64,000 bases of DNA, from the IMG/VR virus record IMGVR_UViG_3300037419_003079. One strand, written 5' to 3'. Under the pieces are notes generated by a model. That model was not told the DNA's origin, searched no databases, and saw only the letters and a program-made list of their open reading frames with translations. This document shows positions 6,212 through 41,700 of this stretch, in pieces. The stretch is from a virus. Lineage: Duplodnaviria > Heunggongvirae > Uroviricota > Caudoviricetes. A program made the translations under genes and the position numbers. Numbering within the stretch: position 1 is the stretch's first letter; each line of letters opens with the position of its first letter.

Positions 6212-6240
6212 TTAAAGGAGGGAAAACCCTCCTCGTATTA
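6212..6240 (-). terminator. hairpin/weak terminator after ClpP-like gene
   Basis: GGAGGG-AAAA-CCCTCC stem, then UUUAAAC on the minus-strand transcript. Confidence 0.35.
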
Positions 6241-6855
6241 AAACTCTAAGCTTGAGATTAACTCGTCTGCTACACCTAATTCAATAGATTCGTCACCGAA
6301 GAAGAACCATTCTTCTTTGTACTTATCTTTGTATTGCTCAGGAGTAATCTTTGTGTTGCCTAAGATATAAGCCTTAACTCGTTCCTCTTGACGCTTTTGA
6401 AACTCAACTTGGTCGATAACCTGACCTGTAGTTCCTGACGCACCTGATGAACCTTGGTGAATTAAGACTACTGAATCTTTGTAAGTGAAACGCTTATGTC
6501 CTGCGATAAAGATTAATCCTCCTGCTGACCAAGCCTTACCTAAGTTATATGTATAAACAGGTGTTTTACTTAACTGAATAGTATTGATGATAGTATTACA
6601 TGCTACTAAATCTCCACCGTAACAGTTGATAAAAATCTTAATTGGTTTGCGTTGCTCAACTGGTAAGTCTTTGTCTTCTTTGTTATAGCGAATGATATGT
6701 TCAGCGATTTCTGCGATAATATCGTCTTCAACTACTTCGGGCAAGTATAACTCACGGTTCTCAAGTTTTTCTGCATATAGTAATTCGTCAACCTTTGATG
6801 TTGTGTTCATGTTTCCTAATTGTAGTAATAATTTGTTTTGATTCATGCCATTCAC
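6238..6855 (-). CDS. ClpP-like serine protease (Clp protease proteolytic subunit family, paralog 1)
   Basis: 205 aa. Ser-His-Asp arrangement: KAWSAGG (Ser) and LIHQGSSG (His). Not at the prohead-protease position. Confidence 0.75.
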   Translation of the reverse strand: MNGMNQNKLLLQLGNMNTTSKVDELLYAEKLENRELYLPEVVEDDIIAEIAEHIIRYNKEDKDLPVEQRKPIKIFINCYGGDLVACNTIINTIQLSKTPVYTYNLGKAWSAGGLIFIAGHKRFTYKDSVVLIHQGSSGASGTTGQVIDQVEFQKRQEERVKAYILGNTKITPEQYKDKYKEEWFFFGDESIELGVADELISSLEF

Positions 6856-6884
6856 CTCGTAAGTTTATTTTGTATTATACTTAT

Positions 6885-6913
6885 ATTATAACTCAACTTT
6901 CTTTGAAAGTCAA
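6885..6913 (-). promoter_or_regulatory. sigma-A consensus promoter (TTGACT-17-TATAAT)
   Basis: Reverse complement reads CCCTTGACTTTCAAAGAAAGTTGAGTTATAATATAAG. Confidence 0.75.
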
Positions 6914-6922
6914 GGGATAATC

Positions 6923-7396
6923 CTAAAAAGATGGTACTAACATTTTAAGTGCACTTCCTAGTGTAACTAGTACGCCTACTACCAATGTAGGAGTTACAAT
7001 CTGTGGTTTTTCCTGCTCAACTACAGGAGCACTAGGTTCGTGATGAAACTTTACTTTTATTGATGATGTTTCTGTATTCGTTATGTATTCAACCTTAGGT
7101 GTATGTAATAATCCTTTTATGTGTTCTTGTTGCTCAACAACTATGTTATGTAATCCAGTATTTTCATTATGTAATAAAGAATTTTGTGCCTCTAGCTGAC
7201 TTACATGGTCTTGAAGTGAGTTAATCTCTACACTTTGCTGATGATTGTGTTTAACTAGTATGTCTATGTATTTACTAAGGTCACTTATGTATTTCCAAAG
7301 TATAAGGATTAACAGGACAATCAATGCAATAATTATGAATCTGATTATTATTTTGCGATACATCTTCTTTAAGATTTTGTCGCCTTTTCTTTTCAT
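6923..7396 (-). CDS. membrane-anchored coiled-coil protein
   Basis: 157 aa with an N-terminal TM segment (IIIRFIIIALIVLLILILW), a heptad-rich middle and a C-terminal hydrophobic segment. Confidence 0.55.
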   Translation of the reverse strand: MKRKGDKILKKMYRKIIIRFIIIALIVLLILILWKYISDLSKYIDILVKHNHQQSVEINSLQDHVSQLEAQNSLLHNENTGLHNIVVEQQEHIKGLLHTPKVEYITNTETSSIKVKFHHEPSAPVVEQEKPQIVTPTLVVGVLVTLGSALKMLVPSF

Positions 7397-7425
7397 TGTT
7401 ATCGCCTCCTGTTATCTTATAATTG

Positions 7426-7456
7426 TATTATAACTTTATTCTGTGGAAAAAGTCAA
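7426..7456 (-). promoter_or_regulatory. sigma-A promoter (TTGACT-17/18-TATAAT)
   Basis: Reverse complement reads CCTTGACTTTTTCCACAGAATAAAGTTATAATAC. Confidence 0.7.
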
Positions 7457-7608
7457 GGATAAAATTGATAAAAACTTCAAGGAAATAATAGAATATTATC
7501 GGTATGCAAAGTGACTCTACTACTCCGAAATCCGTATAAAAGAATAATAGTGCCGATGGAAGTAAAAGGAATATAATTATTTTTAAAATCATCATAATAT
7601 CTGACATA

Positions 7609-7914
7609 TTAATCGTGGTGGTGATGATGTGCTATTCCTAAAGCAAATCCAACTGCTAATGAGAATAGTCCAAAAATCACATTTTCAATATTAGGCAACA
7701 TTATTGCCCACATAGTCAACGCTTTATCTACTCCGTTTACAAACAACATACTAGTTATAGTGCTTACTCCAAATGCTTTGAACACTCCAACAGAACCTAT
7801 ACACGCTACTATTAAGTGAATAACTCCTTCAATACCATTTAATATAGCCATACTATTATACAACCATTTACCAAACTTGTTTTCAAAAAAGAAATGTTTT
7901 AATTTGTTTTTCAT
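7609..7914 (-). CDS. small membrane protein with natural C-terminal His5 tail
   Basis: 101 aa with 2-3 TM segments, ending ...GIAHHHHHD. AAGGAGG RBS. Confidence 0.6.
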   Translation of the reverse strand: MKNKLKHFFFENKFGKWLYNSMAILNGIEGVIHLIVACIGSVGVFKAFGVSTITSMLFVNGVDKALTMWAIMLPNIENVIFGLFSLAVGFALGIAHHHHHD

Positions 7915-8423
7915 ATAATAACTACCTCCTTAATTCCTTTAACTTCTTTTCTAACTATTTCTATAGGTACAGCATAACCGTAGCTATGATAAAGAACTTT
8001 ATTGCCACTCCTTGTTGCCAACTTTTTCTTGTCGAATCTATCCATGTTTTTTATGAACCACTCTCTAGTAGATGGCATAGGAAGTATGTAGATTGTACTG
8101 CTCTTTACAAAATAATAATGTAAGTAGTCTGCACAGGTATACATAAAACAACCTTGAGTTCCTTTAGTTGCGTTACTAATTGTCTCAAAAAAGAAATTTC
8201 CACTTTCATATGTATCAGACTTAACCTCTATGTTAACAACATTTCTGTTGGTTATATGGATTAAATCTATGTCAAACTCTTGAAACGCTTTGTCATCTTC
8301 TACATTCATTACGTCTATCGTTTCTTCGAGTGAAAAAAGATAATGACTTACCCTATCAATAGCTATCTTTGAAACATCATATTGTTTATTGAAGTCGTAA
8401 GTTTTAATAGCTAAACACCTCAA
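7911..8423 (-). CDS. hypothetical protein, possible PD-(D/E)xK nuclease fold
   Basis: 170 aa. D...E-x-K-like core (DIDLIHI ... NIEVKSD). TTG start. 20-nt overlap with the upstream gene. Confidence 0.4.
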   Translation of the reverse strand: MRCLAIKTYDFNKQYDVSKIAIDRVSHYLFSLEETIDVMNVEDDKAFQEFDIDLIHITNRNVVNIEVKSDTYESGNFFFETISNATKGTQGCFMYTCADYLHYYFVKSSTIYILPMPSTREWFIKNMDRFDKKKLATRSGNKVLYHSYGYAVPIEIVRKEVKGIKEVVII

Positions 8424-8784
8424 CTAAAAGACCTTTCTTTGTAGCGTAGTCTATCATATCTTTAGTTCCTGATGACGTTCCATTCCAAAATGCTAACAGT
8501 ATGTCTGCATAATCACCCATGTCGTGATTACGCTTAATTCCTGCACCTTTATCTGTAGAACCGTCTGCTCTTTTCCATTTAGGTATAAATCTCTTTATCC
8601 TACAATCTCTTTCTCTAGCAAATCTCTCTCCTAATTTGTCAGCACCGTTAGCACCACCCGACACTATCTCCACTTTATCCCATAATTCGGGAGGGAGTTG
8701 TGAACAAATAAAGAAGGCAACCTTATCTGCTAAGTAATCGTAGTCATTAAAGTCTCGACCACCTGCAATTATGATTCTTATCAT
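8404..8784 (-). CDS. SLOG/Rossmann-fold protein (DUF2493 / YpsA-like)
   Basis: 126 aa. IIIAGGRDF ... IVSGGANGADKLGERFA motif is typical of the DprA/LOG-like SLOG clade common in phages. Confidence 0.55.
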   Translation of the reverse strand: MIRIIIAGGRDFNDYDYLADKVAFFICSQLPPELWDKVEIVSGGANGADKLGERFARERDCRIKRFIPKWKRADGSTDKGAGIKRNHDMGDYADILLAFWNGTSSGTKDMIDYATKKGLLVEVFSY

Positions 8785-8815
8785 GTCTTACCTCCTTTGC
8801 TTATCTTATATTTAT

Positions 8816-8844
8816 ATTATAGTTTCCCATAGTCCGAAAGTCAA
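8816..8844 (-). promoter_or_regulatory. sigma-A consensus promoter (TTGACT-17-TATAAT)
   Basis: Reverse complement reads CCTTGACTTTCGGACTATGGGAAACTATAATATAAATA. Confidence 0.75.
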
Positions 8845-8865
8845 GGACAAATTGTAAAAAATTTC

Positions 8866-8890
8866 AAAAAAAAGAGAGGCGTTAGCCTCC
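8866..8890 (-). terminator. rho-independent terminator after SPFH gene
   Basis: GAGGC-GTTA-GCCTC stem, with plus-strand A8 giving U8 on the minus-strand RNA. Confidence 0.6.
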
Positions 8891-8895
8891 CTCAA

Positions 8896-9837
8896 TTACT
8901 TAGTTCCTTTGATTGGTAAGTTGAACAACATATTACCATTGTCACCAATTACTAGGTTCTCAGGTAATTTAATTTTACCTTCTGCTAAACCTTTAGCTAA
9001 TGTTTCTTGAATTTCTAATTGTTTCATCTCTGCTAATGTAGCCATAGCTTGCTTCTTTTTCTGTGCTTGTAGTAATTCAGATTGTGCTTTAGCCTCATTA
9101 GTAGCGTTGGTAATTTTTTGTGCCTCTTGTTCTGCCTTAGCAGTAACTTTTGCTGTTAATGCGTTTTGTACAGCCTCGTCAGAGTAAACTAACTCACCTT
9201 TATAACCAATGTTAGAAATAGTAATACCTTGCTCTTTGAAATACTTAATGACATCTACACTAACTTCATTGATAATGTCAGCCTTGTTAGCACGAATTTC
9301 GTCCATACTACGCTTAGAGAAAGCCTCAATCATTTTCGTTTCTAAACGGTTACGAATTTCATTATCCATGATTTCAGATAAGTGCTTACCTTTGTATGTA
9401 TATAAGAACTTAGGTGTGTCCTCAGGGTGAATAGATGAAGTAGCAGAGATACCTTGTGAGAACTTAATTGAGTCACGAGATTCCGACTTAATAACTTTGT
9501 CTCCAATCCACTCACGAGTCTCAGGGGAACGATTGATTTTTACAACTGAAACAGTGTCAATGTATTTTACTTGCCAGTATCTACGACCTACTTGGATTTC
9601 TTTTTGAGGAATTTGGATTCGCTTACTAGCAACCATGTTCTTCTCTAAGAATTGAACTGAATCGAATTGTTGTTGGTCAGAAGTCTTACCTTCTAACGGT
9701 AATACGAAAGCAGTCTCATTAGCGTCAATAGTGACGAACTTAGGCTTGTTATAAGGCTTAACACAACCTGTTAATGTAGTTGTTAAAGCAATACCTACTA
9801 CTAAAGCACCAATTTTTTTACTTGTTTTCATTTGCAT
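8896..9837 (-). CDS. SPFH/band-7 (stomatin/prohibitin-like) lipoprotein
   Basis: 313 aa. Lipoprotein signal MQMKTSKKIGALVVGIALTTTLTG-C, then an SPFH core, then a coiled-coil tail (AKAEQEAQK ... ELLQAQKKKQA). Confidence 0.75.
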   Translation of the reverse strand: MQMKTSKKIGALVVGIALTTTLTGCVKPYNKPKFVTIDANETAFVLPLEGKTSDQQQFDSVQFLEKNMVASKRIQIPQKEIQVGRRYWQVKYIDTVSVVKINRSPETREWIGDKVIKSESRDSIKFSQGISATSSIHPEDTPKFLYTYKGKHLSEIMDNEIRNRLETKMIEAFSKRSMDEIRANKADIINEVSVDVIKYFKEQGITISNIGYKGELVYSDEAVQNALTAKVTAKAEQEAQKITNATNEAKAQSELLQAQKKKQAMATLAEMKQLEIQETLAKGLAEGKIKLPENLVIGDNGNMLFNLPIKGTK

Positions 9838-10081
9838 TACCTCCGAATAGTTTTTTAATATCTTTTAACATAAACAAGATGAAGATTAAGATTGAGCCAC
9901 TGAATTGAATGGTAGTTCCATATTTAGTTAGGAAGTTATATCCTGCTAAACTAGTGTTGCTATCTTGAAGTTGCATTAAAGCTACTTTGTTGTCTATTGG
10001 TGTTGAAAAAGAATTTAGTACTACATTGAGTAATGTTATAAATACTAATCCTACTACTAATCTAATGATTGTTGATTTCAT
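9818..10081 (-). CDS. small membrane protein (possible NfeD-like partner of the SPFH protein)
   Basis: 87 aa with two TM segments. Overlaps the SPFH gene start by 20 nt. Lies 11 nt downstream of the ClpP-like gene. Confidence 0.5.
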   Translation of the reverse strand: MKSTIIRLVVGLVFITLLNVVLNSFSTPIDNKVALMQLQDSNTSLAGYNFLTKYGTTIQFSGSILIFILFMLKDIKKLFGGNANENK

Positions 10082-10092
10082 TGTTCTCCTCC

Positions 10093-10713
10093 TTATTCAA
10101 TTGCGAAATTTCCTGCTTGAACATCTTCTCTTTTCAGACGAGTAATAGCAATCTTAGATTCTACTACACCTAGCTTAATAGCCTCGTCAGTATCAAAATA
10201 CCAATCTTTGACTGTATCTTGCATATTAGCAATCTCGTCTGCACGAATATTAGTTCTTTCTAAGACAAATTTATTAACCTTGCTTCTCATAAACTTCTCT
10301 ACAGCCTCCATGCGTCTTTGGTGTTCTGTGAAAGTACCACCTTGACCATATGAAATGTCATGGAACATAAACACTGTATGTTCGTATGAATAACGCTTAT
10401 GTCCTGCTAGTAAAATTGGGATACCCATACTAGCTACCATTCCTAATCCAATAGTATGTACTGGTGTCTTACTATTTCTGATGATGTCCATCAATCCTAG
10501 ACCTGATGTTACAGAACCACCGGGAGTATTGATAGTCAAGAAGATAGGGAATTTACTTCTGTCGTGATTGTTATAAGTAGCCTTCTCTTTTGCGTCATCA
10601 ATTCGATTGATTTCTACAATCTTCTCGATAATGGCTTTTGTAGAGGTATTACTAACTTCTTCTGATAAAAATAAGTTACGGTTGATTTCGTTAACTGGAA
10701 CCTGTACTGTCAT
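10093..10713 (-). CDS. ClpP-like serine protease (paralog 2), first gene of the protease / small-membrane-protein / SPFH operon
   Basis: 206 aa. TINTPGGSVTSGLGLMD ... MVASMG (Ser) ... MFHD (His). ClpP/NfeD-N (clan SK) organisation. Confidence 0.8.
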   Translation of the reverse strand: MTVQVPVNEINRNLFLSEEVSNTSTKAIIEKIVEINRIDDAKEKATYNNHDRSKFPIFLTINTPGGSVTSGLGLMDIIRNSKTPVHTIGLGMVASMGIPILLAGHKRYSYEHTVFMFHDISYGQGGTFTEHQRRMEAVEKFMRSKVNKFVLERTNIRADEIANMQDTVKDWYFDTDEAIKLGVVESKIAITRLKREDVQAGNFAIE

Positions 10714-10745: not shown

Positions 10746-10775
10746 ATTATAACTTGCTTGGATACAAAAAGTCAA
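10746..10775 (-). promoter_or_regulatory. sigma-A promoter (TTGACT-18-TATAAT)
   Basis: Reverse complement reads CCTTGACTTTTTGTATCCAAGCAAGTTATAATAC. Confidence 0.7.
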
Positions 10776-10810: not shown

Positions 10811-10840
10811 AAAAAAAATCGACTAGGAAATGTCCTAGTC
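10811..10840 (-). terminator. rho-independent terminator downstream of the tRNA
   Basis: GACTAGGA-CATTT-CCTAGTC stem followed by U8 on the minus-strand RNA. Confidence 0.75.
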
Positions 10841-10868: not shown

Positions 10869-10942
10869 TGGCACGGATTGTAAGAATCGAACTCACATCA
10901 AAGGTTTTGGAGACCTTTGTTTTACCATTAAACTAAATCCGC
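10869..10942 (-). tRNA. tRNA-Trp (anticodon CCA), 74 nt with encoded CCA
   Basis: Hand-folded from the sequence: acceptor GCGGATT/AATCCGT (G1-U72), D arm GTTT-AATGGTA-AAAC, anticodon arm AAGGT-CTCCAAA-ACCTT (U33, C34C35A36, A37), 4-nt variable loop, T arm GTGAG-TTCGATT-CTTAC, discriminator G, CCA. Confidence 0.75.
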
Positions 10943-14486: not shown

Positions 14487-14516
14487 TAAAATAAAAGAGA
14501 GGCTAAATGCCCCTCT
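14487..14516 (-). terminator. weak terminator after MBL-fold gene
   Basis: AGAGG-N9-CCTCT stem followed by a U-rich tract (CUUUUAUUUUAC) on the minus-strand RNA. Confidence 0.3.
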
Positions 14517-15294
14517 ATTTAACTTCAAAACTGTAAGTCTCTCTTGGTAGTGCAATTCTCATAAATGAATCTTTAACCTCTAAGTAATGTTCTTCTAGGT
14601 CATCTCCGTAGTGCATTATGAAAATATTTCGTTTATACTTGTTTGGCAATGATTTAAGTTCTTCAAGTGAAGCGTGCACCTTACCATCATAATCAAACAT
14701 TTGGCAATCATGGAAAATAGCTTGTGCACCGTCTTTAACTGCCATCTTAATAAATTCTTCGTTAAACAATGAATCAGATGTGTAAACTATGTAATCGTGT
14801 TCTGAGATAATTAAGCCATATGACTTTTTCTTAGGGATATGCTCAGTGCTATAGACTGAAATCATGCAATCGTTAAAGAAGAAGTATTGGTCTCTATCGT
14901 TAACAATTTCATATGTAAAGTAATCATCAAATTTCATTTGTCTATCTAATTCGCCTTCTACCATAGTTCCTTTAAGGACTTTATTCCACAAATCATTTTT
15001 TAAATCTACATGAGGGAAAATAAGGTGTGGCTTTTTCTTTAAAACATATCGTCCAAAGAATCCTGCCTCCTCTAGTCCGTATACATGGTCTCCGTGGAGG
15101 TGAGTAATAAAAATAGCGTCAATATCTGACCATGAGAACTCTGATTTAAATAAATCATCAGGTGTTGTTCTTCCACAGTCAATCATCATATTCTTTTTTA
15201 CTTCTCCATTTGTTACAGTTAACACTGCACTGTTATTGCCAAAGTTCTTAGCAAATGCACTTCCTGTTCCTAGAAAAGTTAAGTCTATTTTCAT
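14515..15294 (-). CDS. metallo-beta-lactamase-fold hydrolase (RNase Z / cyclic-nucleotide phosphodiesterase-like; Apyc1-like candidate)
   Basis: 259 aa. HxHxDH motif (ITHLHGDHVYG) plus downstream His/Asp ligands. Last gene of its operon. Confidence 0.8.
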   Translation of the reverse strand: MKIDLTFLGTGSAFAKNFGNNSAVLTVTNGEVKKNMMIDCGRTTPDDLFKSEFSWSDIDAIFITHLHGDHVYGLEEAGFFGRYVLKKKPHLIFPHVDLKNDLWNKVLKGTMVEGELDRQMKFDDYFTYEIVNDRDQYFFFNDCMISVYSTEHIPKKKSYGLIISEHDYIVYTSDSLFNEEFIKMAVKDGAQAIFHDCQMFDYDGKVHASLEELKSLPNKYKRNIFIMHYGDDLEEHYLEVKDSFMRIALPRETYSFEVK

Positions 15295-17409: not shown

Positions 17410-17465
17410 AGCAACAAGTAGCGAAGGTTGCTTGTCCCACAAACTAAATGAGGAGGAATGTCACA

Positions 17466-18392
17466 ATGACAATTACCTACGAAAGAGGAAAATGGATTGA
17501 ACTAGGAAAACAGTTGGAGGTAGTAGTTGCCAAAAATAATGAACTTCCTAAGCCAAGAAAAAAATCTTTAACTGAGTTATTTAAAGACTTTGCTAGAGAA
17601 CATAACACAACTTATAGTTCTGCTCAATTTTATTATTACAACGATATTAAGCCAAAGGTTGATAGAAATGAATTGGTTTACAACCCTAGGTCATATGATG
17701 ATGAACTAAACAACTATATGAACAACACTCAAGTAGACCCTATATTTAGAAACACAAAAAACGTTAGAAATGTTCACAAGATTGGAACTATCGTACAAGG
17801 AGAAATCGTTGGTCTAACAGACTTTGGTGCTTTTCTTAGAACAGAACAAGGATTTGAAGGACTTATACACATATCTCAAATTACAGAAAAAGATTTCGTT
17901 ACGCTTCCTGAGGACTATTTTTATATTGGTGAAAAAGTTAAAGCTAAAGTCATGAGATATGACGGAAACAAACTTAATTTATCAACCAAGGCAACAGGAG
18001 GAAAAGAAAAGATAAATCCTGTTTTCAAAGATTTAAGTTTAAAGAAAACTGAAATACAAGAAACTAAGAAAGTAACTCCGAAAGTAATACAAAAACCAAA
18101 AGAAGTTGTACATGAGACCAAAGTAGAACCTAAAGTTATAGAGGACAATACAAAAGTAGTTCCAATTAGTACATCTAACAATGATAAAGATAACATAATC
18201 AACTTTATTAAGAGATATTCTGATAATAACGTATCTCAAAAGGCACTTGGAGATTTAGACGACTTAATCTCTGAATATGGAGTTTTCCAAACAACTATAT
18301 CACTAATGGAAACTGTTCGTGATTTAGATATTTCTTCTTTCATTACCGAGATGACAAAAGAAAGGCTTGAAGGTGAATATCTTAGGCAATAA
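17466..18392 (+). CDS. S1 RNA-binding-domain protein with Lys-rich C-terminal extension
   Basis: Start refined to the ATG at 17466 (GAGGAGGA RBS). S1/OB core GTIVQGEIVGLTDFGAFLRT ... GLIHISQI ... GEKVKAKV. Confidence 0.75.
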   Translation: MTITYERGKWIELGKQLEVVVAKNNELPKPRKKSLTELFKDFAREHNTTYSSAQFYYYNDIKPKVDRNELVYNPRSYDDELNNYMNNTQVDPIFRNTKNVRNVHKIGTIVQGEIVGLTDFGAFLRTEQGFEGLIHISQITEKDFVTLPEDYFYIGEKVKAKVMRYDGNKLNLSTKATGGKEKINPVFKDLSLKKTEIQETKKVTPKVIQKPKEVVHETKVEPKVIEDNTKVVPISTSNNDKDNIINFIKRYSDNNVSQKALGDLDDLISEYGVFQTTISLMETVRDLDISSFITEMTKERLEGEYLRQ

Positions 18393-18651
18393 TGAATTGA
18401 AAGAAAGATATTCTTTAACTTCACACATAGTCAAACGGTGGAGACAACGTATAGAAAAAAATATTACCTACGATGAAATCAGAGAGAAAGTAGATGAAAT
18501 CATAGATAATGGTATTAAGAGAACTGTAGACGACAAGCATTATCGGATATGTTATAAAGACATCTGTGTTGTGTTTATGAAATTAAGTCCGCTACATTCA
18601 TTGGCAAAGACTGTTTATATTAAGAGTGAGGAGGAATTTGGGTGCTGTTAG
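18367..18651 (+). CDS. hypothetical protein (about 85-94 aa, start uncertain)
   Basis: Only TTG/GTG in-frame starts. Followed by a terminator hairpin. Confidence 0.35.
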   Translation: MKVNILGNNELKERYSLTSHIVKRWRQRIEKNITYDEIREKVDEIIDNGIKRTVDDKHYRICYKDICVVFMKLSPLHSLAKTVYIKSEEEFGCC

Positions 18652-18668
18652 CACTCTTTTTCTTTTCC
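18640..18668 (+). terminator. rho-independent terminator
   Basis: GGTGC-TGTTA-GCACTC stem followed by TTTTTCTTTTCC. Confidence 0.55.
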
Positions 18669-18860
18669 CTAAATTTATAATACACTTATATTTTAACATA
18701 GTCAAGAGTATCTGCAAAAAAACATGCTTTGAATCGTAAATATTTAATAAAAAGAATTATTTAGTATTTATATATCTTTTAGTAATTACTAAGTAATTAT
18801 ATTATATTTATTTATTATTTATTAATATATATATTTATATATATAACTGTCCAAAGTTGA
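18669..18860. repeat. AT-rich region with (TA)n/TATTTA simple repeats and a 6-bp inverted repeat ACTGTC-N7-GACAGT
   Basis: More than 85% A+T over ~190 bp. ATATATATTTATATATATAACTGTCCAAAGTTGACAGTCC lies immediately upstream of the sigma-factor gene. Confidence 0.6.
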
Positions 18861-18901
18861 CAGTCCCCAAAATTGACCCTATAAAAAGGAGGTGCGTTAA
18901 T

Positions 18902-19558
18902 ATGTCAAGAATTGAAAAAGAAGAACATTTAAAAGGACTTATAAATATTGTGCAAAACTCTGATAATGGATATGAGAAAGAAAACGCCATGATGGAGGTA
19001 CTTAATAAATTTGAACCTTTCAGAAGGTCTTTAACGAAGAAATTCGCAGGAAAAGGAGTAGACTTCGATGATGTGTGTCAAGTAATTGATTTAAAGCTAA
19101 TTGAAGCTATGTATGATTATGATGAAAAACTAGATTCATCTGCTATTAGGCATATCACATCTAAGGCAAGGAATGGAGTATTTAATTTCTACAAGAAAGA
19201 AATGAACTACTTTAAAGAAGACCGTAAAACTATTAGCATTGACCAATCATTTTACAATATTTCTCACAACGGATACAAATTAACTATTGATGATTCATCT
19301 TGGATTGAGGCTTATTTTGAAGAAGAATTTGACGAAGATAAAATCATAGATAAGATTATGTTAGAACAAGGATTGACAAATTTAACAGAACATCAAAGAG
19401 AATTAATACATATGTACTATTGGGCAGATATGACCCAAGAGGAGATTGCAGAAGAACTACAGATACACCAAGCAAATGTATCAAGGGCAACAAAAAGAGG
19501 AGTCAAGAGACTCAAAGAGAATCTTAACCCCTTGGGTGAGCAGTCCGATAAGCTTTAG
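18902..19558 (+). CDS. phage-encoded sigma-70-family sigma factor (sporulation/ECF-like size)
   Basis: Start refined to the ATG at 18902 (AGGAGG RBS). Region-4 HTH LTEHQRELIHMYYWADMTQEEIAEELQIHQANVSRATKRGVKRLKE, with a region-2-like helix upstream. Confidence 0.75.
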   Translation: MSRIEKEEHLKGLINIVQNSDNGYEKENAMMEVLNKFEPFRRSLTKKFAGKGVDFDDVCQVIDLKLIEAMYDYDEKLDSSAIRHITSKARNGVFNFYKKEMNYFKEDRKTISIDQSFYNISHNGYKLTIDDSSWIEAYFEEEFDEDKIIDKIMLEQGLTNLTEHQRELIHMYYWADMTQEEIAEELQIHQANVSRATKRGVKRLKENLNPLGEQSDKL

Positions 19559-22971: not shown

Positions 22972-25200
22972 ATGACAGAAGACAACAAATCAAATACTAA
23001 TATAGTTAATAAGGTAGATTTAGGAAATGGCAAGAAACAAGTCACTTTCAAAGTAGACCCTACTGACATCACAAAGTACTTCTCTAATCTTGATGAATCA
23101 AATGTCAAGTATGATGTAGAAGGTGATTTTAAATTGGGCAAGGGAAGTGTAAGAAATAGATACGAACCTACCAATTATGACTATCTATCGCAACACACTT
23201 CAAACCAAAAGTCTTATACACAAGCATTAAAAACTCCTACTGACCCACATGATAAAATCAGGTTAGCGTCAGAACTTTACTACAAAGAACCAATCATCGG
23301 TACAGTTATCGACATGATGGTAGATTTCAGTGCAAGTGGCTTTAATAATGAGTGTGCAGACAAAGAGGTTAAAAAACTTTATGACCAATGGGCTAAGGAT
23401 ATTAAATTACAAGAAACAGTAGAGCATATATTCTTAGAATATTACCGAAGTGGCAATGTATCAATTTATCGTAGCGATAGAGACGCAAAGGTTAAAAAGA
23501 CAACTACTAAAAAAGGTAAAGCTACTGCTACAGAAGAATTTACTTTTCCTAGTGGCTATACCATTTTAAATCCTATGAATGTTAAGATTGAAGGTCCTTT
23601 ATTATTCAATCAAGAAAGGGCTTATCTTGAACTTGGCGAAGACTTAGTTAAGATGACAAAAGAAGGAGATTCTTCTGTTCTTAAATTAATACCTGCTGAG
23701 GTTGTAAAAGCAGTAAGGTCAGGTCGAGGTAATATACCTTTAGACCCTAAGTTATACACTCGTATCACGAGAAAGAAACAGCCATATGAAAGATATGCAA
23801 CACCTTACTTAGAGAGAGTATTTGAGCCTATCATGTATAAACAAAAATTAAGAATGATGGATATGTCTACTATTGAGGGACTAGTTAACCAACTAGTTAC
23901 AGTAACAATTGGTAATGACGAATATCCTGCAAGCGATGAAGACTTAGAGGCAATCTCAGCATTATTCCAAACTCCTAATAAGGCATACACAGTGTTTTGG
24001 AATCACACACTTGAAGTTAAATTCCATAAGCCTGAGGGCATTGAAACACTGAATAACGATAAATACAAGCAAGTCAATGACGATATTCTAGCAGGACTTG
24101 GTGTAAGCCGAGTACTTATTGACGGTCAAGGTTCTAACTTTTCAACTGCATGGGTTTCAATCCTATCTTTAATTGAGAGATTAGACAATACTCGTGAAAA
24201 AGTAGTTCGATGGCTAGAAGACGAGTATAAGCGTATTGCTGATGAAAATGGTTTCAAAGTTATACCAAAAGTTCAATTTAATAAGATGAATCTTCGTGAA
24301 GATAATTACATTAGAGATGTACTTCTTGCTATGTATGACAGAGGTCTTATTGATGAAGAAGATATTCTTAAAGAAACTGGTCGTGACTACGAATCTATTA
24401 TCGAAACTAAAAAACGCAATGAGAAAAATTCTAAATTATTCTTACCTCCTGAACAACCATTCCAAGGTGGTCAGACAGGTCCGAATGGTGGAAAACCAAG
24501 TGGTCAACCACAAAAACCTATGAAACAAAGAGATGTTTCACCTGAACAAAATAGTGGAAACCCACCAAAATCTAAGGCAAATAAGTCAATAGCATATTCT
24601 CAGCAACTAGAAGAAGAATATGAAACTGAGTTAGTAGAATTTTATAATTCTATCAAAGCAGATATATCTAAACTAGCTGAGGAAAACAAAGACAATAGCT
24701 TGCTAGAGGCAATTTTGTTAGGTGCTTTAATAGGAATGTTTAAGTCTTTAAGTCATCTAGGTGATAGATATATTGATGACGCTTATAATAGTGAGATAGT
24801 AATGCACTCAAATAATATAGATGTTTCAAAGTCTAATAAAGTCAAGAACGACTTAAAAAACTGGAATAACAGCTATGTTGTTAAGCTAGCTAACGATATT
24901 AGAAATGATATTATCAATAACATATCTAAAGACTTACCAGTTAATATTGCAGTTAATAAAGCGTTCAATAGTAACGCATATAGAATCCCTGCTATGGCTG
25001 AGGCTGTAATCCTAGATTCAACTAGACAAGCAAAGATTCAAGGTAACGAGTTCTTAGGTATGCAAACTGCTACATGGAGAGCACACCTTGATGATAGAAC
25101 TTGTTCAACATGCAGAGGTTTAGATGGTAAGACATTTAACATTAATGGAATCCCACCTCGACCACATGCACATTGTCGTTGTGACTTGGATTTCAACTAA
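22972..25200 (+). CDS. portal protein fused to Mu-F/SPP1-gp7-like minor head protein domain
   Basis: 742 aa. The N-terminal ~500 aa is portal-like. The C-terminus carries the Phage_Mu_F signature ...WRAHLDDRTCSTCRGLDGKTF ... PPRPHAHCRCDL. Confidence 0.8.
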   Translation: MTEDNKSNTNIVNKVDLGNGKKQVTFKVDPTDITKYFSNLDESNVKYDVEGDFKLGKGSVRNRYEPTNYDYLSQHTSNQKSYTQALKTPTDPHDKIRLASELYYKEPIIGTVIDMMVDFSASGFNNECADKEVKKLYDQWAKDIKLQETVEHIFLEYYRSGNVSIYRSDRDAKVKKTTTKKGKATATEEFTFPSGYTILNPMNVKIEGPLLFNQERAYLELGEDLVKMTKEGDSSVLKLIPAEVVKAVRSGRGNIPLDPKLYTRITRKKQPYERYATPYLERVFEPIMYKQKLRMMDMSTIEGLVNQLVTVTIGNDEYPASDEDLEAISALFQTPNKAYTVFWNHTLEVKFHKPEGIETLNNDKYKQVNDDILAGLGVSRVLIDGQGSNFSTAWVSILSLIERLDNTREKVVRWLEDEYKRIADENGFKVIPKVQFNKMNLREDNYIRDVLLAMYDRGLIDEEDILKETGRDYESIIETKKRNEKNSKLFLPPEQPFQGGQTGPNGGKPSGQPQKPMKQRDVSPEQNSGNPPKSKANKSIAYSQQLEEEYETELVEFYNSIKADISKLAEENKDNSLLEAILLGALIGMFKSLSHLGDRYIDDAYNSEIVMHSNNIDVSKSNKVKNDLKNWNNSYVVKLANDIRNDIINNISKDLPVNIAVNKAFNSNAYRIPAMAEAVILDSTRQAKIQGNEFLGMQTATWRAHLDDRTCSTCRGLDGKTFNINGIPPRPHAHCRCDLDFN

Positions 25201-25212
25201 GGTGGTGAAAAA

Positions 25213-26844
25213 GTGGATAAAGAGCATAAAAACCTATCTTTAGAGAAGATTGATATGCAGGTACTATCTGTAGAGGCTTGCGAAGTAGATGAAATTAAAA
25301 AGTCTTTTGCAAGTTTAGCAGATAAAGAGGATTTATTTTTAGACCCTGACCTGATGTATGCAAAATTCATTATGTGCCATGAAGGTGCTAATGCTAACGG
25401 TGATTACTTTACAAAAGATGTACTTTTCCGAGCACAATATACACCTAGGTTTAAGCCTATTGATTGGGAACATGGTCAACCTATGATTGGAACTATGTTA
25501 GACAGTCGATACGCAGAAGACGCACAAGGCAGAGCATACATAGAGGCTATAGGAGTTATTTGGAAATTTATTTACCCTGACTTAGCAGAACAAGTAAAAG
25601 AGAAATCTAGCACTGGTGCACTAAGGCTTTCAATGGAGTGTTACTTCAAAGACGCTAACTACAAATATGGAGAGCAAATCTTCGACCAAGAACAAGCAGA
25701 GGAATTAGGAATCTCTGATTATGTTGGTCGTGAATATATGGGACAAAAAGTTTACCGTGTATTCAAAGATGTAGTATTTGGTGGAGTTGGAGTTGTAGCT
25801 AATCCTGCTGACAAAGAGGCTGTATTTCTAGCAGTAGCTAAGAAAAAAGCACAAGAAGTTATTCAAAACAACGAAGTCGCAAACAACCTTACTGATGAAC
25901 AAATCCAAGCGATTGCAAACATCATAAGAAACACAAACGACTTTAATGAGAAACAGATTAGCAAAGACACTATTGACGCTGTAACAGTAGCTAAATTTGT
26001 CAAGGCTTTTGATAAAGCCAAAAGCGATATTGTTGCAAAGTTCAATAAAGAACATCTTGCAACGAAGGAACAGTTAGTATCTGAGGTTAGAAGTATCATA
26101 GAATTACTTCTATCTGATGTTTCTAATATAAACAATGATTATTTTGTTGGTCGTGCCAAAGATGACTCTAATGAGTTAGAGGTTGCGATTGCAGACTTAA
26201 ACCTAAAACTATGCAACCAATGTCAAGAAATAGAGGTAGCAGAAGAAGACGAGGGAGGAAGTGAAAAGATGGAACAGGAAAACTTAGAAACTGTTGTTGA
26301 GCAAGTAGAAGATACTGAGGAAGTTGAAAATACTGAGGAAGTAGCAGTAGAAGAAGTAGTTGAGCCTGTAGTTGAGGAAGTTGAAGTTATTGACTACCAA
26401 GCACAAGCTAATGAACTACAAGTTAAAGTTACTGAACTTGAAGATAAACTTCAAGAAAAAGACCAAGCATTTGCTAGTCTTAAAGAGGAGTTTGACGCTT
26501 TAAAAAATAAAGTTGAAGCAAGCGAAAAAGAGGTCACTTTAAATACTCGTATCGCTGAATTAACTGAATTAGGTATTGAGTTCTCTGAGGCTCGTAAGGC
26601 TAAAGAAATCGAAAAGATTTCTGCTATGGACAACGATTCATTTGTTGATTACAAAGAGTTTTTATCTGAGTTACTAGGTAAAAACACTGAGGTAGTTGAG
26701 GCTACTGAACAAGAAGTTGAAGAAGTAGTTGAAGAAGAAGAAGTAGAAGTTGAGGTAGAAGTTGAGAAAGCTGAGGCTACTGAACTTAATATCGAAACTC
26801 CACAACCAAAAGTTATCAAACCATTTGGACATCTGTCTGAATAA
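25213..26844 (+). CDS. scaffolding protein (possibly with N-terminal prohead protease-like domain)
   Basis: 543 aa. Highly acidic Glu/Val-rich coiled coils (EEVEVIDYQAQANELQVKVTELEDKLQEKDQ ... EEEEVEVEVEVEK). Sits between portal and capsid genes. Confidence 0.65.
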   Translation: MDKEHKNLSLEKIDMQVLSVEACEVDEIKKSFASLADKEDLFLDPDLMYAKFIMCHEGANANGDYFTKDVLFRAQYTPRFKPIDWEHGQPMIGTMLDSRYAEDAQGRAYIEAIGVIWKFIYPDLAEQVKEKSSTGALRLSMECYFKDANYKYGEQIFDQEQAEELGISDYVGREYMGQKVYRVFKDVVFGGVGVVANPADKEAVFLAVAKKKAQEVIQNNEVANNLTDEQIQAIANIIRNTNDFNEKQISKDTIDAVTVAKFVKAFDKAKSDIVAKFNKEHLATKEQLVSEVRSIIELLLSDVSNINNDYFVGRAKDDSNELEVAIADLNLKLCNQCQEIEVAEEDEGGSEKMEQENLETVVEQVEDTEEVENTEEVAVEEVVEPVVEEVEVIDYQAQANELQVKVTELEDKLQEKDQAFASLKEEFDALKNKVEASEKEVTLNTRIAELTELGIEFSEARKAKEIEKISAMDNDSFVDYKEFLSELLGKNTEVVEATEQEVEEVVEEEEVEVEVEVEKAEATELNIETPQPKVIKPFGHLSE

Positions 26845-26877
26845 TAAAAAAGAAAATTTCTAAGGAGGAAATTCACA

Positions 26878-27321
26878 ATGTTAAAAGCAATTTTTGAAGG
26901 CGAATTAGCTGTTCACTTTAATGCTCCATCTGCTGACCTTGAGGCAGGTATCTTAGTAAAACTTAACGGTTCTGCTGTAGCTGTAGCAACTGGTGGTGCA
27001 ACTGGTGATGATGTTTATGGTATCTTAGCACAACCAGTTCGTGCTCGTAATGTAAACAACTTTAAATTAGATTCAGTTACTCATGTAGCTTACTACGGAG
27101 AAAAAGTAGGTGTGTACTACGGTGGTGGTGTATACATTACTGACCAAACTCTTGACGGTACTATTGCAGTAGGTCAAAAGTTATATGTAGGTACAGGTGG
27201 TAAATTAACTAAAACTGCTCCTACTGGTGGAAACACTAAGCATGTTGCTATTGCTGAAACAGCAGGTACATTAGCAGGAGATAAAATCCGTATCCGTCTA
27301 GTTGGAAATATCCAAAACTAA
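26878..27321 (+). CDS. capsid-associated protein (decoration/auxiliary), Gly-rich beta protein
   Basis: 147 aa. Immediately upstream of the major capsid protein gene. Confidence 0.4.
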   Translation: MLKAIFEGELAVHFNAPSADLEAGILVKLNGSAVAVATGGATGDDVYGILAQPVRARNVNNFKLDSVTHVAYYGEKVGVYYGGGVYITDQTLDGTIAVGQKLYVGTGGKLTKTAPTGGNTKHVAIAETAGTLAGDKIRIRLVGNIQN

Positions 27322-27337
27322 TCTAAATAAATTATAA

Positions 27338-28282
27338 ATGGAGGTTAAAAAAATGTTTAATGAATACAAAATTTCTTTAGCTACTAGCTTAAAAGATAAC
27401 AAAGCATTAGCAGGAGAAGAATTACAATCGTTTATTAATGACTTTAAAGCTACTGCTGACAACGAAGAAATTCGTAAATCTTTTGCGGCTAGCCTAGCAG
27501 TACCAATCTTAAAGGCTGTTGCTCCACAATCATCTGTTCGTGACATCTTCATGGTAGATGAATTACCTGCGGGTTCACTAGCTGAATACCCAATCGACTT
27601 AGATGACATTGAAGTAGCAACTGTAATGCCTCGTCTAGGTGCAGTACCTCAAAACTTAGTAGTTGGCGATAGCTTAATCGTTCCTACTTTCGAGGTTGCT
27701 AACTCAGTAGAATGGAAATTAGCTTTCGTTCGTGACGCTCGTTTCAACATCGTTGAGCGTGCATTAGAAAAATTAGCTGAATCTTTTGTTCGTGCAGAAG
27801 AAAAAGCAGGTTGGGATACTATTCGTGGTGCTAAAGACACAACTAATACTATCGCTATCGGTTCTGAAACTGGACTTACTCGTAAATTATTCAACAAAAT
27901 GATTACTGACATGAGAGCAATCGGAGCATGTGAGCCGAATGTAATCTATGTTTCTCCTAAGCGTGCTTCTCAAATTCGTGATTGGGGTGCTAGTGACATT
28001 GATGACACTACTCGTAGAGAGTTATTCGTTAAAGGTGGCATGGGTTCTATCTATGGAGTTGAAATCCGTGAGTTACGCTCATTAGGTGATAACGAAGTAT
28101 TTATGTTTGACACTACTAAATTAGGTGTTATGCCTATTCGTACTAAGATGACTTCATATGACAAGCCGGATTCAATCAACCGTCTTCGTGCAGGTGTGTT
28201 AGCTTGGGAAGAAATCGGTTTCGCTGTAATTGACAAGCGTGCTATGCGTGTTTGCGATACATTACCTGGTTTACCTGCTTAA
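27338..28282 (+). CDS. major capsid protein
   Basis: 314 aa. Lies after the scaffold gene and is followed by the strongest terminator in the window. Start may be at the second Met (MFNEYK). Confidence 0.7.
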   Translation: MEVKKMFNEYKISLATSLKDNKALAGEELQSFINDFKATADNEEIRKSFAASLAVPILKAVAPQSSVRDIFMVDELPAGSLAEYPIDLDDIEVATVMPRLGAVPQNLVVGDSLIVPTFEVANSVEWKLAFVRDARFNIVERALEKLAESFVRAEEKAGWDTIRGAKDTTNTIAIGSETGLTRKLFNKMITDMRAIGACEPNVIYVSPKRASQIRDWGASDIDDTTRRELFVKGGMGSIYGVEIRELRSLGDNEVFMFDTTKLGVMPIRTKMTSYDKPDSINRLRAGVLAWEEIGFAVIDKRAMRVCDTLPGLPA

Positions 28283-38638: not shown

Positions 38639-38730
38639 GAAGGTAAAGGGTAGGGTTAGGTTTTCAGGTGAACTATACCCTTCCCTATTTTTTATATAAA
38701 CGTACAAATTTTAAGAAGGAGGTTAAAGAG

Positions 38731-41700
38731 ATGGCAGGAAAAGACTTTAAGTATATTATTAATACCGAGTTAAAGTTAAATACAGGCTCTCTAAAAAAAT
38801 TATTAGAAGATGTAAAAGATGTAGATACTTCCATACGCAACCATTTCAATAAAACTGGTAAAGGTGGTATCAAACTACCTATCAGTATTGATAAAGGTGC
38901 TAGTTTAAATAACTTACAATCAGAAGTAAAGGCAGTAATTACCAACTTCAACAGAAGTCAAGCACCTAAGATTAAAATCAAAATGGAACTTGATAATAAA
39001 AGTGCTGAGGCTTTAAAGCAACAAGTAGACAATGTTAAGCACCATCTTAACAATATTAATAATAGCAAAGAAAATGTAAATATTAAGACCTCTCTTAAAG
39101 TTGACAAGGGCGAAAAAGAAAAAGTACAGAAACAAGTTGGCGACATCAAAGCAACTATGACTGTGGGATTAAAAATAGACCAAAACGATTTAAGAGTTGT
39201 TAAAGGTCAAATAGAATCTTTAAGACAAGAAGTTGTAAACACTAGTAGAACTAGAACAACTAGAAACGGTGAGGTAGTAGGCAGTTTCCGTGACCATGTT
39301 AACGATAGAACTGCGTCAGTTGGCTCTAGAAGTACAGCAGACAAAGACTTACTTAATGCTAAGGCTCAGGCTCAGGCAGAGAAGGATATGGCAAGTGCTA
39401 GAAGGCAAAATGCTCAAGCACAAAAAACTGAATTACAAGTTGAACAGGCTATCACAAAAGAAAAGGAAAAGCAAGCTAAGTTAGACAGAGAAAATACAAA
39501 CCTTTTCAAAATGAGAGACCAATCAACTAGAAGATTGACTAAGGCACAAGATACTCTAACTCAACTAGAGTCAAAGGCTAACGGTTCTAATTGGAGAACA
39601 CTATCTACTAATGACCAAAAAGCATTATCAGGTCAACTAGACACATATAGAAAAAAGGTAGAAAAGTTCCAAAGAGAAAGAGATAAGATTGACAATGCAA
39701 TCTTAAACCAATTACCTAACAACTATTACAATCGTAAGCCATTAGTTGACCCTATGAACGCAACTAGAGGCAGAGTTGTAATGAATACCAACTCTAATGT
39801 TCAAGCACAGATTCAATCACAAATAAAGGCTCAGAGACTAGCTGAACAACAAGCACAAAAGGAAATAGAAAGAGCACATAAGCAAGCTGACGCTCTAAAT
39901 AGAAAGTATGACCAAGACCGTGCTAGACAACAACAACAAGCTAGGAGAGACGCTGAGTGGAATGGTGCTGTACATAGATACGGTGGCAACAGACAAAAAA
40001 CCATTCTTGATGATGAAATGGTTTTAAGAAATCCTGACGCTAGTAAGAATGACAAGTTAGAGGCTCTTGAAAGATTAAAGCAAAATGCAGGTGGATTAGC
40101 TAGGGAAATGAATCAAAACCTAACTCGTTCATTTGAAGTATTTAATCGTAATGCTGATGGAACCATCTCTAGAACTAGAACCGCACAGTATGAGTTCACT
40201 AGATTCGGAGACGCTGTTGACCGTTCTAACAAGTTTATGAGTACTCTTAGAAACACTATGCAATATGCAGGTATTACGACTGCTTTCATGGCTATGGGTC
40301 AAGGTATTCAAATAGCTGTTCAAAGTATGATTGATTTTGAGGCTCAAATGTCTCGTATTCAATTGCTAACTACAGACCTAAGAGATGGTGGTCTAAACCA
40401 AGCATACTCAGGTTTCGGATATAGTAAAAATAACATAAAGCATAATACTCGCAGAGATGTATCAAATCTTTCTCAAAAATACGGAATGTCTGCTACTGAC
40501 ACTGTAATGCCAGTTTATCAACAAGTTATGGCTAGAAGTGAGCTGATTAAAGGTAATGGAGATAAGCCTAGCCCTGTGTTGGCAAATAAGATTACAGACC
40601 AAATCTTAAAATATAGTGCAATTACATTAGGACCTAATGCAGGTGCAGATGATGTTAATCGTATATCTCAAGATATGTTATCTCTATATCAAGGGCTATA
40701 CAAAGGAAAAGGTCAACAACATGTATACGACATGGATAGATTCGTAGACTTCATGACTCTAATGAATGGTAGTGGTGTCAACACTAACAACATTATGGAC
40801 GCTATGAGTGAAGTTGCTCCTGACGCTATTAAGAAAGGTATAGACCCTAGGAGAGTAGCAGGTATGCTAGGTGCTTACAATTTATCTGATAGTGATTCAA
40901 GTGGCTCTAATATGACAACAGTTGCTAAAACATTCTTCGGTGGATTAGCTAGATATAAAGATAGTGAGTCTATCCAATCAGGTCTGAAAACACTAGGCAT
41001 TGATACAACTCAAAACTATTCTCAAGAAGAATTATTAGACTTAGTTGTTAAGAATTACAAAGGTTTGAGTGATACACAAAAAGAATCTGTATCTAGAGAC
41101 TTGTCATCTGTTAATGGTAAAGGTATATCGCAAGCACCTAAGATTCAAAAGTTCTTAGACGCTAGTGGTTCTGAATATGCTGAAACATTCAAAAAGAATA
41201 TGACTAGCACTGGATTAGCTGACAATGCACTTGATACTTATCTAAAAACTGCTAAAGTTCAGTTCGGTCAATTAAAGCAAGAATTGACTGAGACGGTTGA
41301 ACTATTAGCTGAACTAGGTGCTTTAGATGGTCTTAAAGCATTGCTTGGTGGATTCAAAGTTGCTGTTCAAACAGTAAATGGTTTCCTAGATATAATTGTT
41401 AGACTAGGTGACGCTAGTGAGAAAATATTTGGATTCAATATTCCTAAATATGTGACACAAATTTTAGCATTAGCAGGTGCATTTAAATTAGTAACTGCTA
41501 CGATGAAAAAGTTTCAACTTGGAACTGGATTGCTTCAAGGTGGTAGTTCATTAATAGGTGCTCTTACTCAAGGAGAAATGATTACTCGTGCCTCTTTCAA
41601 CGGAAGAACTCAAAGGAAAGTTAATGTAGAAGTTCCTCATACTGGAAAAGGTTCAGGCGTAGGAAATGTTATCGGTCAGGCAGTAGGTTGGGTACTTATG

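Follow-up and report, generated by a model that had tools for sequence, protein, structure and literature searches.

Divergent ClpP Paralogues and a Mini-Protein/SPFH-Lipoprotein Module in the Early Arm of a Large Caudoviricetes Phage: Probably Two Independent Functional Units

Genomic Context and Transcription Unit

This report concerns four minus-strand open reading frames (ORFs) in the early arm of a Caudoviricetes phage represented by a 166-kb JGI metagenome contig (IMG/VR record IMGVR_UViG_3300037419_003079), of which a 64,000-nt stretch with a G+C content of 35%, hereafter the window, was analyzed. The early arm runs leftward (~0.3–17 kb of the window) and the structural arm rightward. 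Three of the ORFs, encoding a ClpP-family protease (ClpP-A), a mini-protein with two transmembrane segments (2-TM) and an SPFH/Band-7 lipoprotein, directly succeed one another, and a second ClpP-family protease (ClpP-B) is encoded further along the same strand. The features that delimit and make up the locus, in the direction of transcription, are:

10869..10942, minus strand: tRNA-Trp (cca), found by ARAGORN; upstream boundary of the ClpP-A/mini/SPFH unit
10811..10840, minus strand: terminator-like hairpin closing the upstream transcript, from a consensus scan (8-bp stem, then GATTTTTTTT)
10746..10775, minus strand: sigma-A/sigma-70-type promoter TTGACT-18-TATAAT (11/12 matches; intergenic)
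10093..10713, minus strand: ClpP-A, 206 aa, divergent cytoplasmic S14 ClpP (Pfam CLP_protease)
9818..10081, minus strand: mini-protein, 87 aa, 2-TM hairpin, homologue of phage G gp64
8896..9837, minus strand: SPFH/Band-7 lipoprotein, 313 aa (Pfam Band_7, phrog_200)
8862..8893, minus strand: intrinsic terminator 3' of the SPFH gene (9-bp stem with 5 GC pairs, then the TTTTTTGAAA T-run)
6885..6913, minus strand: promoter TTGACT-17-TATAAT ahead of ClpP-B (11/12 matches)
6238..6855, minus strand: ClpP-B, 205 aa, second divergent S14 ClpP

All four ORFs, the promoter of the trio (10775–10746) and its terminator (stem 8893–8872) lie where a preliminary description of this DNA had placed them, and its observations that ClpP-B has a promoter of its own (6913–6885), that two ClpP-family genes sit in the early arm, that a 2-TM mini-protein is encoded between ClpP-A and the SPFH gene, and that the latter codes for a lipoprotein with a coiled-coil tail were all borne out by the analyses described below. 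Strong ribosome-binding sites precede the ClpP-A (GAGGAGG), mini and SPFH genes; the gap between the first two is 11 nt, and the SPFH gene overlaps the mini gene by 14–20 nt, its GGAGG ribosome-binding site lying inside the end of the latter, an arrangement by which mini and SPFH are best read as a translationally coupled two-gene membrane module. As the tRNA-Trp and a second terminator are found directly upstream of the promoter, ClpP-A, mini and SPFH make up a discrete transcription unit and, judging by these sequence signals, are co-transcribed. Promoter-like sites overall are not in excess in the window (27 vs. 23.7 in shuffled sequence), and all six of the minus-strand sites with 11/12 matches are located ahead of genes.

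Two Divergent S14 Proteases

Both proteases match Pfam CLP_protease (cutoff 20.2 bits) over most of its 182 profile positions, ClpP-A with 97.9 bits (8e-28, positions 17–177) and ClpP-B with 89 bits (4e-25, positions 10–180); they are 34% identical to each other, and solved cellular ClpPs are the best PDB sequence matches of both (8e-17 and 5e-13, respectively). The AlphaFold model of ClpP-A (predicted local distance difference test, pLDDT, 86.5) matches the ClpPs of E. faecium, S. aureus and B. subtilis at a TM-score of ~0.8 and a root-mean-square deviation of ~2.1 Å, and its top 50 fold matches in the PDB are, without exception, cellular S14 ClpPs, none of these 50 being an NfeD/PH1510-type or a capsid protease. 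NfeD1b_N reaches only 16 bits on ClpP-A and ClpP-B against a cutoff of 40, and NCBIfam SppA_dom only 17.8 against 155, whereas the best-scoring NCBIfam ClpP models give 85.9 bits for ClpP-A (cutoff 228) and 75.1 bits for ClpP-B (cutoff 249), which is likewise below their cutoffs. By these profile comparisons, both proteins are to be regarded as divergent members of S14 that are equivalogs of neither the cellular ClpP nor the head maturation protease.

The catalytic residues were located in an alignment of ClpP-A and ClpP-B, their orthologues and E. coli ClpP (a reference with self-consistent numbering), in which Ser97 and His122 (E. coli numbering) are invariant in both lineages. The triad of ClpP-A consists of Ser95, His118 and an Asp at the D171 column, this Asp being retained throughout its lineage. 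In the ClpP-B lineage, the same column holds Glu in the window and at locus L122 (loci of relatives are designated by L and a number), Asn in gp175 of phage Nate and Asp in phage vB_BcoS-136. The genes of the ClpP-B lineage in which the third catalytic residue varies were placed at:

6238..6855 of the window, minus strand
6924..7529 of L122
4160..4762 of L127

Listeria ClpP1 has Asn172 at the third position of the triad, and the variability seen in the ClpP-B lineage recalls, by analogy, the catalytically dependent subunits of the ClpP1 type.

The handle region is present in both proteins, and their N-termini differ. Only ~10 residues precede strand 1 in ClpP-A, in which the N-terminal axial loop and the first part of helix A are missing and whose ORF is not extendable upstream, while ClpP-B possesses helix A together with a 24-aa N-terminal extension that is dissimilar to the canonical loop. 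In canonical ClpP, the loss of the axial gate loosens unfoldase dependence, and the gate-less ClpP-A might, by the same token, depend on an unfoldase more loosely. The preliminary description had suggested a check for the hydrophobic ClpX-binding pocket, the aromatic positions of which proved to be poorly conserved in both proteins: at the positions equivalent to E. coli F49, Y60, Y62 and F82, which we take to be those of the IGF/ADEP pocket, ClpP-A has E, F, T and N and ClpP-B has R, K, F and L, as read from an alignment at 27–30% identity. There is no signal peptide, TM segment or hydrophobic N-terminus in either ClpP-A or ClpP-B; as in E. coli ClpP, each has a sole hydrophobic maximum at the buried strand bearing the catalytic Ser, and both ORFs stop 0–20 residues past the ClpP domain.

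The SPFH Lipoprotein and Its Mini-Protein Partner

The SPFH protein matches Pfam Band_7 with 44.1 bits (3e-11; cutoff 23.6) and phrog_200, “lipoprotein”, at 3e-17. Its translation probably starts at the ATG at 9831, which is favoured by the ribosome-binding site spacing and the JGI gene call and would give a product of 311 aa. At the N-terminus, a basic n-region leads into a hydrophobic core, and the signal peptide closes with a lipobox (LTG-C25). A regular expression detects the lipobox Cys in 33 of 34 SPFH homologues and inspection by eye in all 34, so that a lipid-modified Cys is the predicted membrane anchor in place of a TM segment or hairpin. In the structural model (pLDDT 81), an alpha/beta core (~30–220) is followed by a single 65-residue helix (221–285) and a flexible, conserved C-terminus. 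The best fold matches of this model are SPFH proteins that form cages, namely prohibitin, stomatin, HflK/C, erlin, flotillin, the vault shoulder domain and QmcA(-YbbJ), with E-values from 1e-11 to 1e-6 at 11–18% identity, and no single subfamily stands out among them. NCBIfam has no model for either the SPFH protein or the mini-protein.

The mini-protein comprises two hydrophobic segments, a loop of ~30 residues between them (27–46 across 20 members of the family) and a basic C-terminal tail. Summed over these 20 members, the net charge is +35 for the N-terminus, −28 for the loop and +53 for the C-terminal tail, and it is because of this positive-inside distribution that an N-in/C-in orientation with the loop outside is predicted. 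The loop carries the motif A-x-x-Q-L/M-x-x-S, the Gln of which is near-invariant in the family alignment. None of the 20 mini-proteins matches NfeD (PF01957) or any other Pfam family at E ≤ 0.05, and, with the ~30-residue loop being their sole soluble part, they cannot hold an OB-fold. Homologues were recognized in phage G (gp64) and in the ORFs upstream of the SPFH genes at L119, L120, L122, L123, L124 and L128, whereas HMMER, run with the mini-protein as a single sequence against 1.84 billion representatives, returned 7 proteins only, one of them a repeat protein and probably spurious, as the family evolves too fast for a search of this kind.

Two other roles were considered for the mini-protein and set aside. 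A holin or antiholin, suggested by the two TM segments and the basic tail, fits poorly with the conserved outward loop of ~30 residues and the obligatory pairing with SPFH, and relatives also have a separate holin-endolysin cassette; the tail IKKLFGG, tried as a ClpP-docking peptide, has similar counterparts in loci without ClpP.

Taken at face value, these predictions place the SPFH domain and the conserved mini loop together on the outer face of the cytoplasmic membrane, and ClpP-A in the cytoplasm. With ClpP-A cytoplasmic and SPFH exported, cleavage of the mature SPFH C-terminus by ClpP-A is very unlikely.

What Travels with the SPFH Gene in Relatives

SPFH-homologue loci were fetched in bulk (35 from IMG/VR and 80 from genomes or metagenome-assembled genomes (MAGs), with flanks of up to 10 kb). 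In 58 of 125 loci, among them essentially all of the viral ones, the SPFH gene is immediately preceded by an ORF of ~74–105 aa with two TM segments, and no ClpP is found within 6 kb in any of the 117 bulk-fetched SPFH-bearing loci. The mini-SPFH pair is present in phage G and other large phages, ~30 gut-phage contigs and some bacteria, the cellular loci with such an ORF being a subset from Pirellulales, Brocadiaceae, Lentisphaeria, Orenia, Clostridia and Massilia. Among phage proteins, gp65 of phage G comes closest to the SPFH protein (47% identity) and is directly preceded by the 2-TM hairpin protein gp64 (84 aa; mini homologue, E 2e-6); gp63, upstream of gp64, is unrelated to ClpP, so that phage G has the same two-gene module with no adjoining ClpP, annotated as hypothetical proteins only. 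A megablast of the region against deposited phages gave a single match, 44 nt inside the SPFH gene, which is also to phage G, and PADLOC returned no meaningful match for ClpP-A, ClpP-B, mini or SPFH.

Among the loci examined, the complete trio of ClpP-A, mini and SPFH is limited to the window, L119 (SPFH 68% identical) and L128 (78%). L122 (SPFH 68–70%) shows the synteny of the window, i.e., Ndt, further genes, mini, SPFH, YAcAr, a ClpP-B orthologue (69%) and ThyA, with unrelated genes at the position of ClpP-A, and therefore has mini-SPFH without ClpP-A. The converse is seen at L129, where an Ndt orthologue, DUF2828 and a ClpP-A orthologue (53%) are followed by an unrelated coiled-coil protein and mini-SPFH is missing. 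At L120, L121 and L123 (SPFH 53–57%), mini-SPFH sits between RecJ and ribonucleotide reductase, and at L124 and L125 it is found in yet other contexts. No NfeD domain occurs among the Pfam families listed for the neighbours at L119–L125 and L128. ClpP-A and mini-SPFH thus assort independently over short distances, and the trio is, therefore, to be seen as synteny within a narrow clade. Clustering the SPFH neighbours in 80 cellular loci revealed no universal partner, only lineage-specific synteny and spurious high-GC ORFs.

Some side observations were made on these loci. An HNH endonuclease gene at L123 (5423–6001) is inserted exactly between mini and SPFH, splitting the otherwise abutting pair. 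The SPFH lipoprotein subfamily is common in MAGs of Planctomycetota, Verrucomicrobiota, Lentisphaerota and Patescibacteria (L039–L118), a subset of which has the 2-TM ORF, and some of the SPFH-bearing “MAG” contigs may be mis-binned phages.

The ClpP Pair as a Lineage Trait

Two ClpP genes in an early region are not new, having already been annotated in Tsamsa-like Bacillus phages: among the Joanripponvirinae (Tsamsa-like) and vB_BcoS-136 (e.g., clpP1), many genomes have two ClpP matches annotated as ClpP subunits, divergent from each other and located in an early region with ligase, SLOG, ThyA, DHFR and TK. In phage Nate (166.9 kb), gp175 (ClpP) is encoded ahead of DNA ligase, and gp193 (ClpP) comes after ThyA and DHFR but before TK and Pol III; between the two ClpPs lies the gene of a SLOG protein (DUF1273). 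The early arm of the window likewise holds ClpP-A, SLOG/YAcAr, ClpP-B, ThyA, DHFR and TK, the gene order differing from that of Nate. Each paralogue of the window finds its best match in a different member of the pair (ClpP-A in Nate gp193, ClpP-B in Nate gp175), and the genomes, at 160–170 kb, are of a size with that of the phage of the window; the ClpPs are, however, only 31–41% identical to those of the window, and no SPFH homologue or mini gene is found in the Tsamsa-like phages with two ClpPs. As its terminase is only ~30% identical to that of any cultured phage, the window represents a distinct lineage.

The nearest outgroup of ClpP-A is made up of gut-phage ClpPs of ~184 aa (38–45% identity), whose neighbours are DNA ligase, Gmk, NT5C, ThyX and NrdD, or NT5C and an SMC-like protein. 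Pattern scans with ClpP-A over metagenome and viral contigs yielded no relatives, these being supplied by the protein database instead, and no paper on paired phage-encoded ClpPs was found in the literature.

Other Features of the Window

Directly downstream of the SPFH unit, a YAcAr/SLOG-family protein (8404–8784, minus strand; PF10686, 48 bits; 75% identity in L122) is encoded under its own promoter (8844–8816), and between this gene and ClpP-B lies that of a 101-aa predicted membrane protein (7609–7914, minus strand; phrog_22482, function not assigned) that ends in HHHHHD. Further upstream in the early arm, a 259-aa protein (14515–15294, minus strand) matches the anti-Pycsar Apyc1 family (PF23023, 128 bits vs. 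a cutoff of 50) and is likely a cyclic-nucleotide-degrading counter-defence protein, an orthologue of which is found upstream of the trio in L119. At the switch from leftward to rightward genes (17448–19558, plus strand) lie the genes for an S1-domain protein and for a phage sigma factor with Sigma70 regions 2 and 4, and the tail arm contains two giant ORFs (38668–47937 and 51755–60307, plus strand; 3089 and 2850 aa), the first of which is presumably a very long tape-measure protein.

Discussion

The reading that we consider likely is that the trio consists of two independent functional units which have come to share an early promoter by chance in this lineage. The first would be ClpP-A, which together with ClpP-B makes up a pair of divergent, soluble, cytoplasmic S14 paralogues in the early module that large Bacillota siphophages devote to nucleotide metabolism and replication, where they may serve as auxiliary cytoplasmic peptidases early in infection. 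The second would be the mini-SPFH module, in which the 2-TM hairpin would expose its conserved loop of ~30 residues and the SPFH lipoprotein would be lipid-anchored on the same outer face. As its architecture is homologous to that of HflK/C, prohibitin and stomatin, SPFH might oligomerise via the helix of 65 residues and so build a ring or cage that covers a patch of membrane, the mini-protein being either its integral-membrane anchor or an enclosed client. Early in infection, the module may thereby sequester some component of the host membrane or alter its activity; candidate roles are the protection of the membrane, superinfection exclusion and the control of a membrane protease of the host.

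Several points weigh against this reading. The ClpP-A, mini and SPFH genes are tightly packed under one promoter and one terminator and are kept so in three related contigs, so that a functional link of ClpP-A with mini-SPFH that is specific to this lineage is conceivable; the co-occurrence of ClpP with mini-SPFH was, moreover, judged within flanks of ≤10 kb. The 2-TM ORFs were detected by a crude hydropathy rule, and many of the cellular SPFH loci are without one. The putative SPFH cage and the mini-SPFH contact are drawn from monomer models and gene adjacency only, and no experiment on any phage SPFH protein was found in the literature.

As regards the proteases, ClpP-A and ClpP-B might assemble into a hetero-tetradecamer resembling ClpP1P2, onto which host ClpX, ClpC or ClpE would dock, so that host proteolysis is redirected, a proposal that is compatible with the above interpretation of SPFH and that we regard as possible but doubtful. 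The retention of two paralogue lineages across many large Bacillus siphophages, with two ClpP places per record, would be in keeping with it, as would the handle region of both proteins and the degeneration of the third triad residue in one lineage only (Glu, Asn or Asp), reminiscent of the Listeria subunit mentioned above. The mostly non-aromatic pocket positions in both, however, and the lack in ClpP-A of the N-terminal loops that canonical ClpPs need for unfoldase coupling argue in the other direction, and L122 retains ClpP-B with no ClpP-A nearby. No AAA+ unfoldase gene was found in the early arm of the window.

One or both ClpPs could, alternatively, be the prohead (head-maturation) protease, encoded outside the structural genes. 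The head module (22972–28282, plus strand) consists of TerL, a portal that carries a fused Mu-F/SPP1 gp7-like domain, a 543-aa ORF without a match in Pfam, a 147-aa protein matching cement/minor-capsid families and a PHROG scaffold family, and a 314-aa HK97-type major head protein, and contains no recognizable protease, in particular none between the portal and major head protein genes. Furthermore, phrog_94, “head maturation protease”, is the best PHROG for both ClpPs (7e-26 and 6e-26), if about equal to “ATP-dependent protease”, NCBIfam Clp_rel_HeadMat (NF045542) gives them 60.6 and 64.6 bits, and in phage MMB025 a ClpP-A homologue adjoins the terminase gene. These Clp_rel_HeadMat scores, however, are about half of the 120-bit cutoff and are exceeded by those of the ClpP models; both genes are in the leftward early arm under sigma-A-type promoters and among ThyA, DHFR, TK and Ndt, which points to early expression, and neither is at the prohead-protease position, as the preliminary description had rightly noted; neither protein has a scaffold or a capsid-targeting C-terminal extension; and relatives of ClpP-A in four lineages adjoin DNA ligase, NT5C, ThyX or NrdD. 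The major head protein, judging by its length of 314 aa, would also be too short for a long delta domain, and a small scaffold-/cement-like gene is located just upstream of it. Capsids of this type are not known to need a protease (SPP1, P22). A role in head maturation is, on balance, improbable.

A very improbable variant would join all of the components: early in infection, an outward cage of mini and SPFH on the host membrane would capture one of the host's membrane machines, be it FtsH, a channel, a receptor or an effector of defence, and in this lineage the gate-less ClpP-A, possibly with ClpP-B, would be recruited to the basic cytoplasmic tail of the mini-protein, the whole amounting to a split phage analogue of HflK/C-FtsH whose cage lies outside and whose protease lies inside.

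Hardly tenable, finally, is the idea of the preliminary description that ClpP-A and the 2-TM mini-protein constitute a split NfeD/STOPP that cleaves or organises SPFH in a phage stomatin-protease system, for in spite of the order of protease, membrane protein and SPFH in one transcription unit, the recurrence of the trio in L119 and L128, and the faint NfeD1b_N matches (E ~0.009) of ClpP-A and ClpP-B, members of a clan that includes the NfeD proteases, these matches stay at 16 bits (cutoff 40) against 98 bits for CLP_protease, the OB-fold of NfeD is absent from 20 of 20 mini-proteins, the protease is predicted to be cytoplasmic and the SPFH domain extracytoplasmic, and the adjacency of ClpP is broken in L122 and L129 and missing from 117 of 117 other loci, with no NfeD in the neighbours listed. 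The action of ClpP-A on the SPFH protein that the preliminary description had proposed is not supported, given their predicted opposite membrane sides and the independent assortment of their genes, and neither is the analogy to the stomatin operon. A phage stomatin-protease pair as an undescribed system is an interpretation and not an observation.

The attraction of that analogy is, nevertheless, easy to see, as NfeD/STOPP-stomatin operons (PH1510-PH1511 in Pyrococcus; QmcA-YbbJ in E. coli; YqeZ-YqfA in B. subtilis) also place an SPFH gene beside that of a small membrane partner, and QmcA (8z5g) matches the fold of the window SPFH at E 3e-7. The protease domain of long NfeD proteins is in the ClpP clan (PMC2636767), and a survey of SPFH operons in prokaryotes reports NfeD partners only for SPFH1, SPFH2 and SPFH5, mentioning neither lipoproteins nor phages (PMC2636767). 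The partner in the window, however, lacks an OB-fold, the protease is not an NfeD-type domain but a free S14 ClpP whose adjacency is not conserved, and the SPFH protein is predicted to be an outward lipoprotein, whereas those of the operons are cytoplasm-facing and hairpin-anchored.

Returning to the reading of two independent units, there is a likeness in architecture to HflK/C (with FtsH) and mitochondrial prohibitin, which have an outward-facing SPFH core (on the periplasm or intermembrane-space side) and a long helix, as is predicted for the window SPFH, and which are among its top fold matches (8rrh, 1e-11; 7vhq and 9cz2, ~1e-9) at 12–18% identity; these, however, have an N-terminal TM anchor and two paralogues, whereas the window has just one SPFH gene, whose product has a lipid anchor, and encodes the 2-TM partner separately. 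SPFH/Band-7 lipoproteins, with no role assigned, have been annotated in T4-like, Vi01-like, Felix O1-like and Schitoviridae phages (PMC1524935, PMC3220722, PMC10892097, PMC13239085), i.e., since 2006, and a 2026 paper calls the reason for their occurrence unclear. They fall into the same phrog_200, yet are only 24% identical (E ~0.2) to the window SPFH, and the gene upstream of the band-7 lipoprotein of a Felix O1-like Erwinia phage encodes a soluble protein of 73 aa, not a 2-TM one, which argues that the 2-TM partner is specific to the SPFH subfamily of the window. The module of a 2-TM mini-protein and an SPFH lipoprotein is thus conserved and, apparently, not previously described.

With the tempting analogy to STOPP-stomatin removed, what is left for the biology of these phages is twofold: the early ClpP pair of large Bacillota siphophages is a recurrent, uncharacterised trait, in which one paralogue is gate-less and the third catalytic residue of the other varies, and mini-SPFH is a concrete two-component module that is available in the cultured Bacillus phage G (gp64-gp65).

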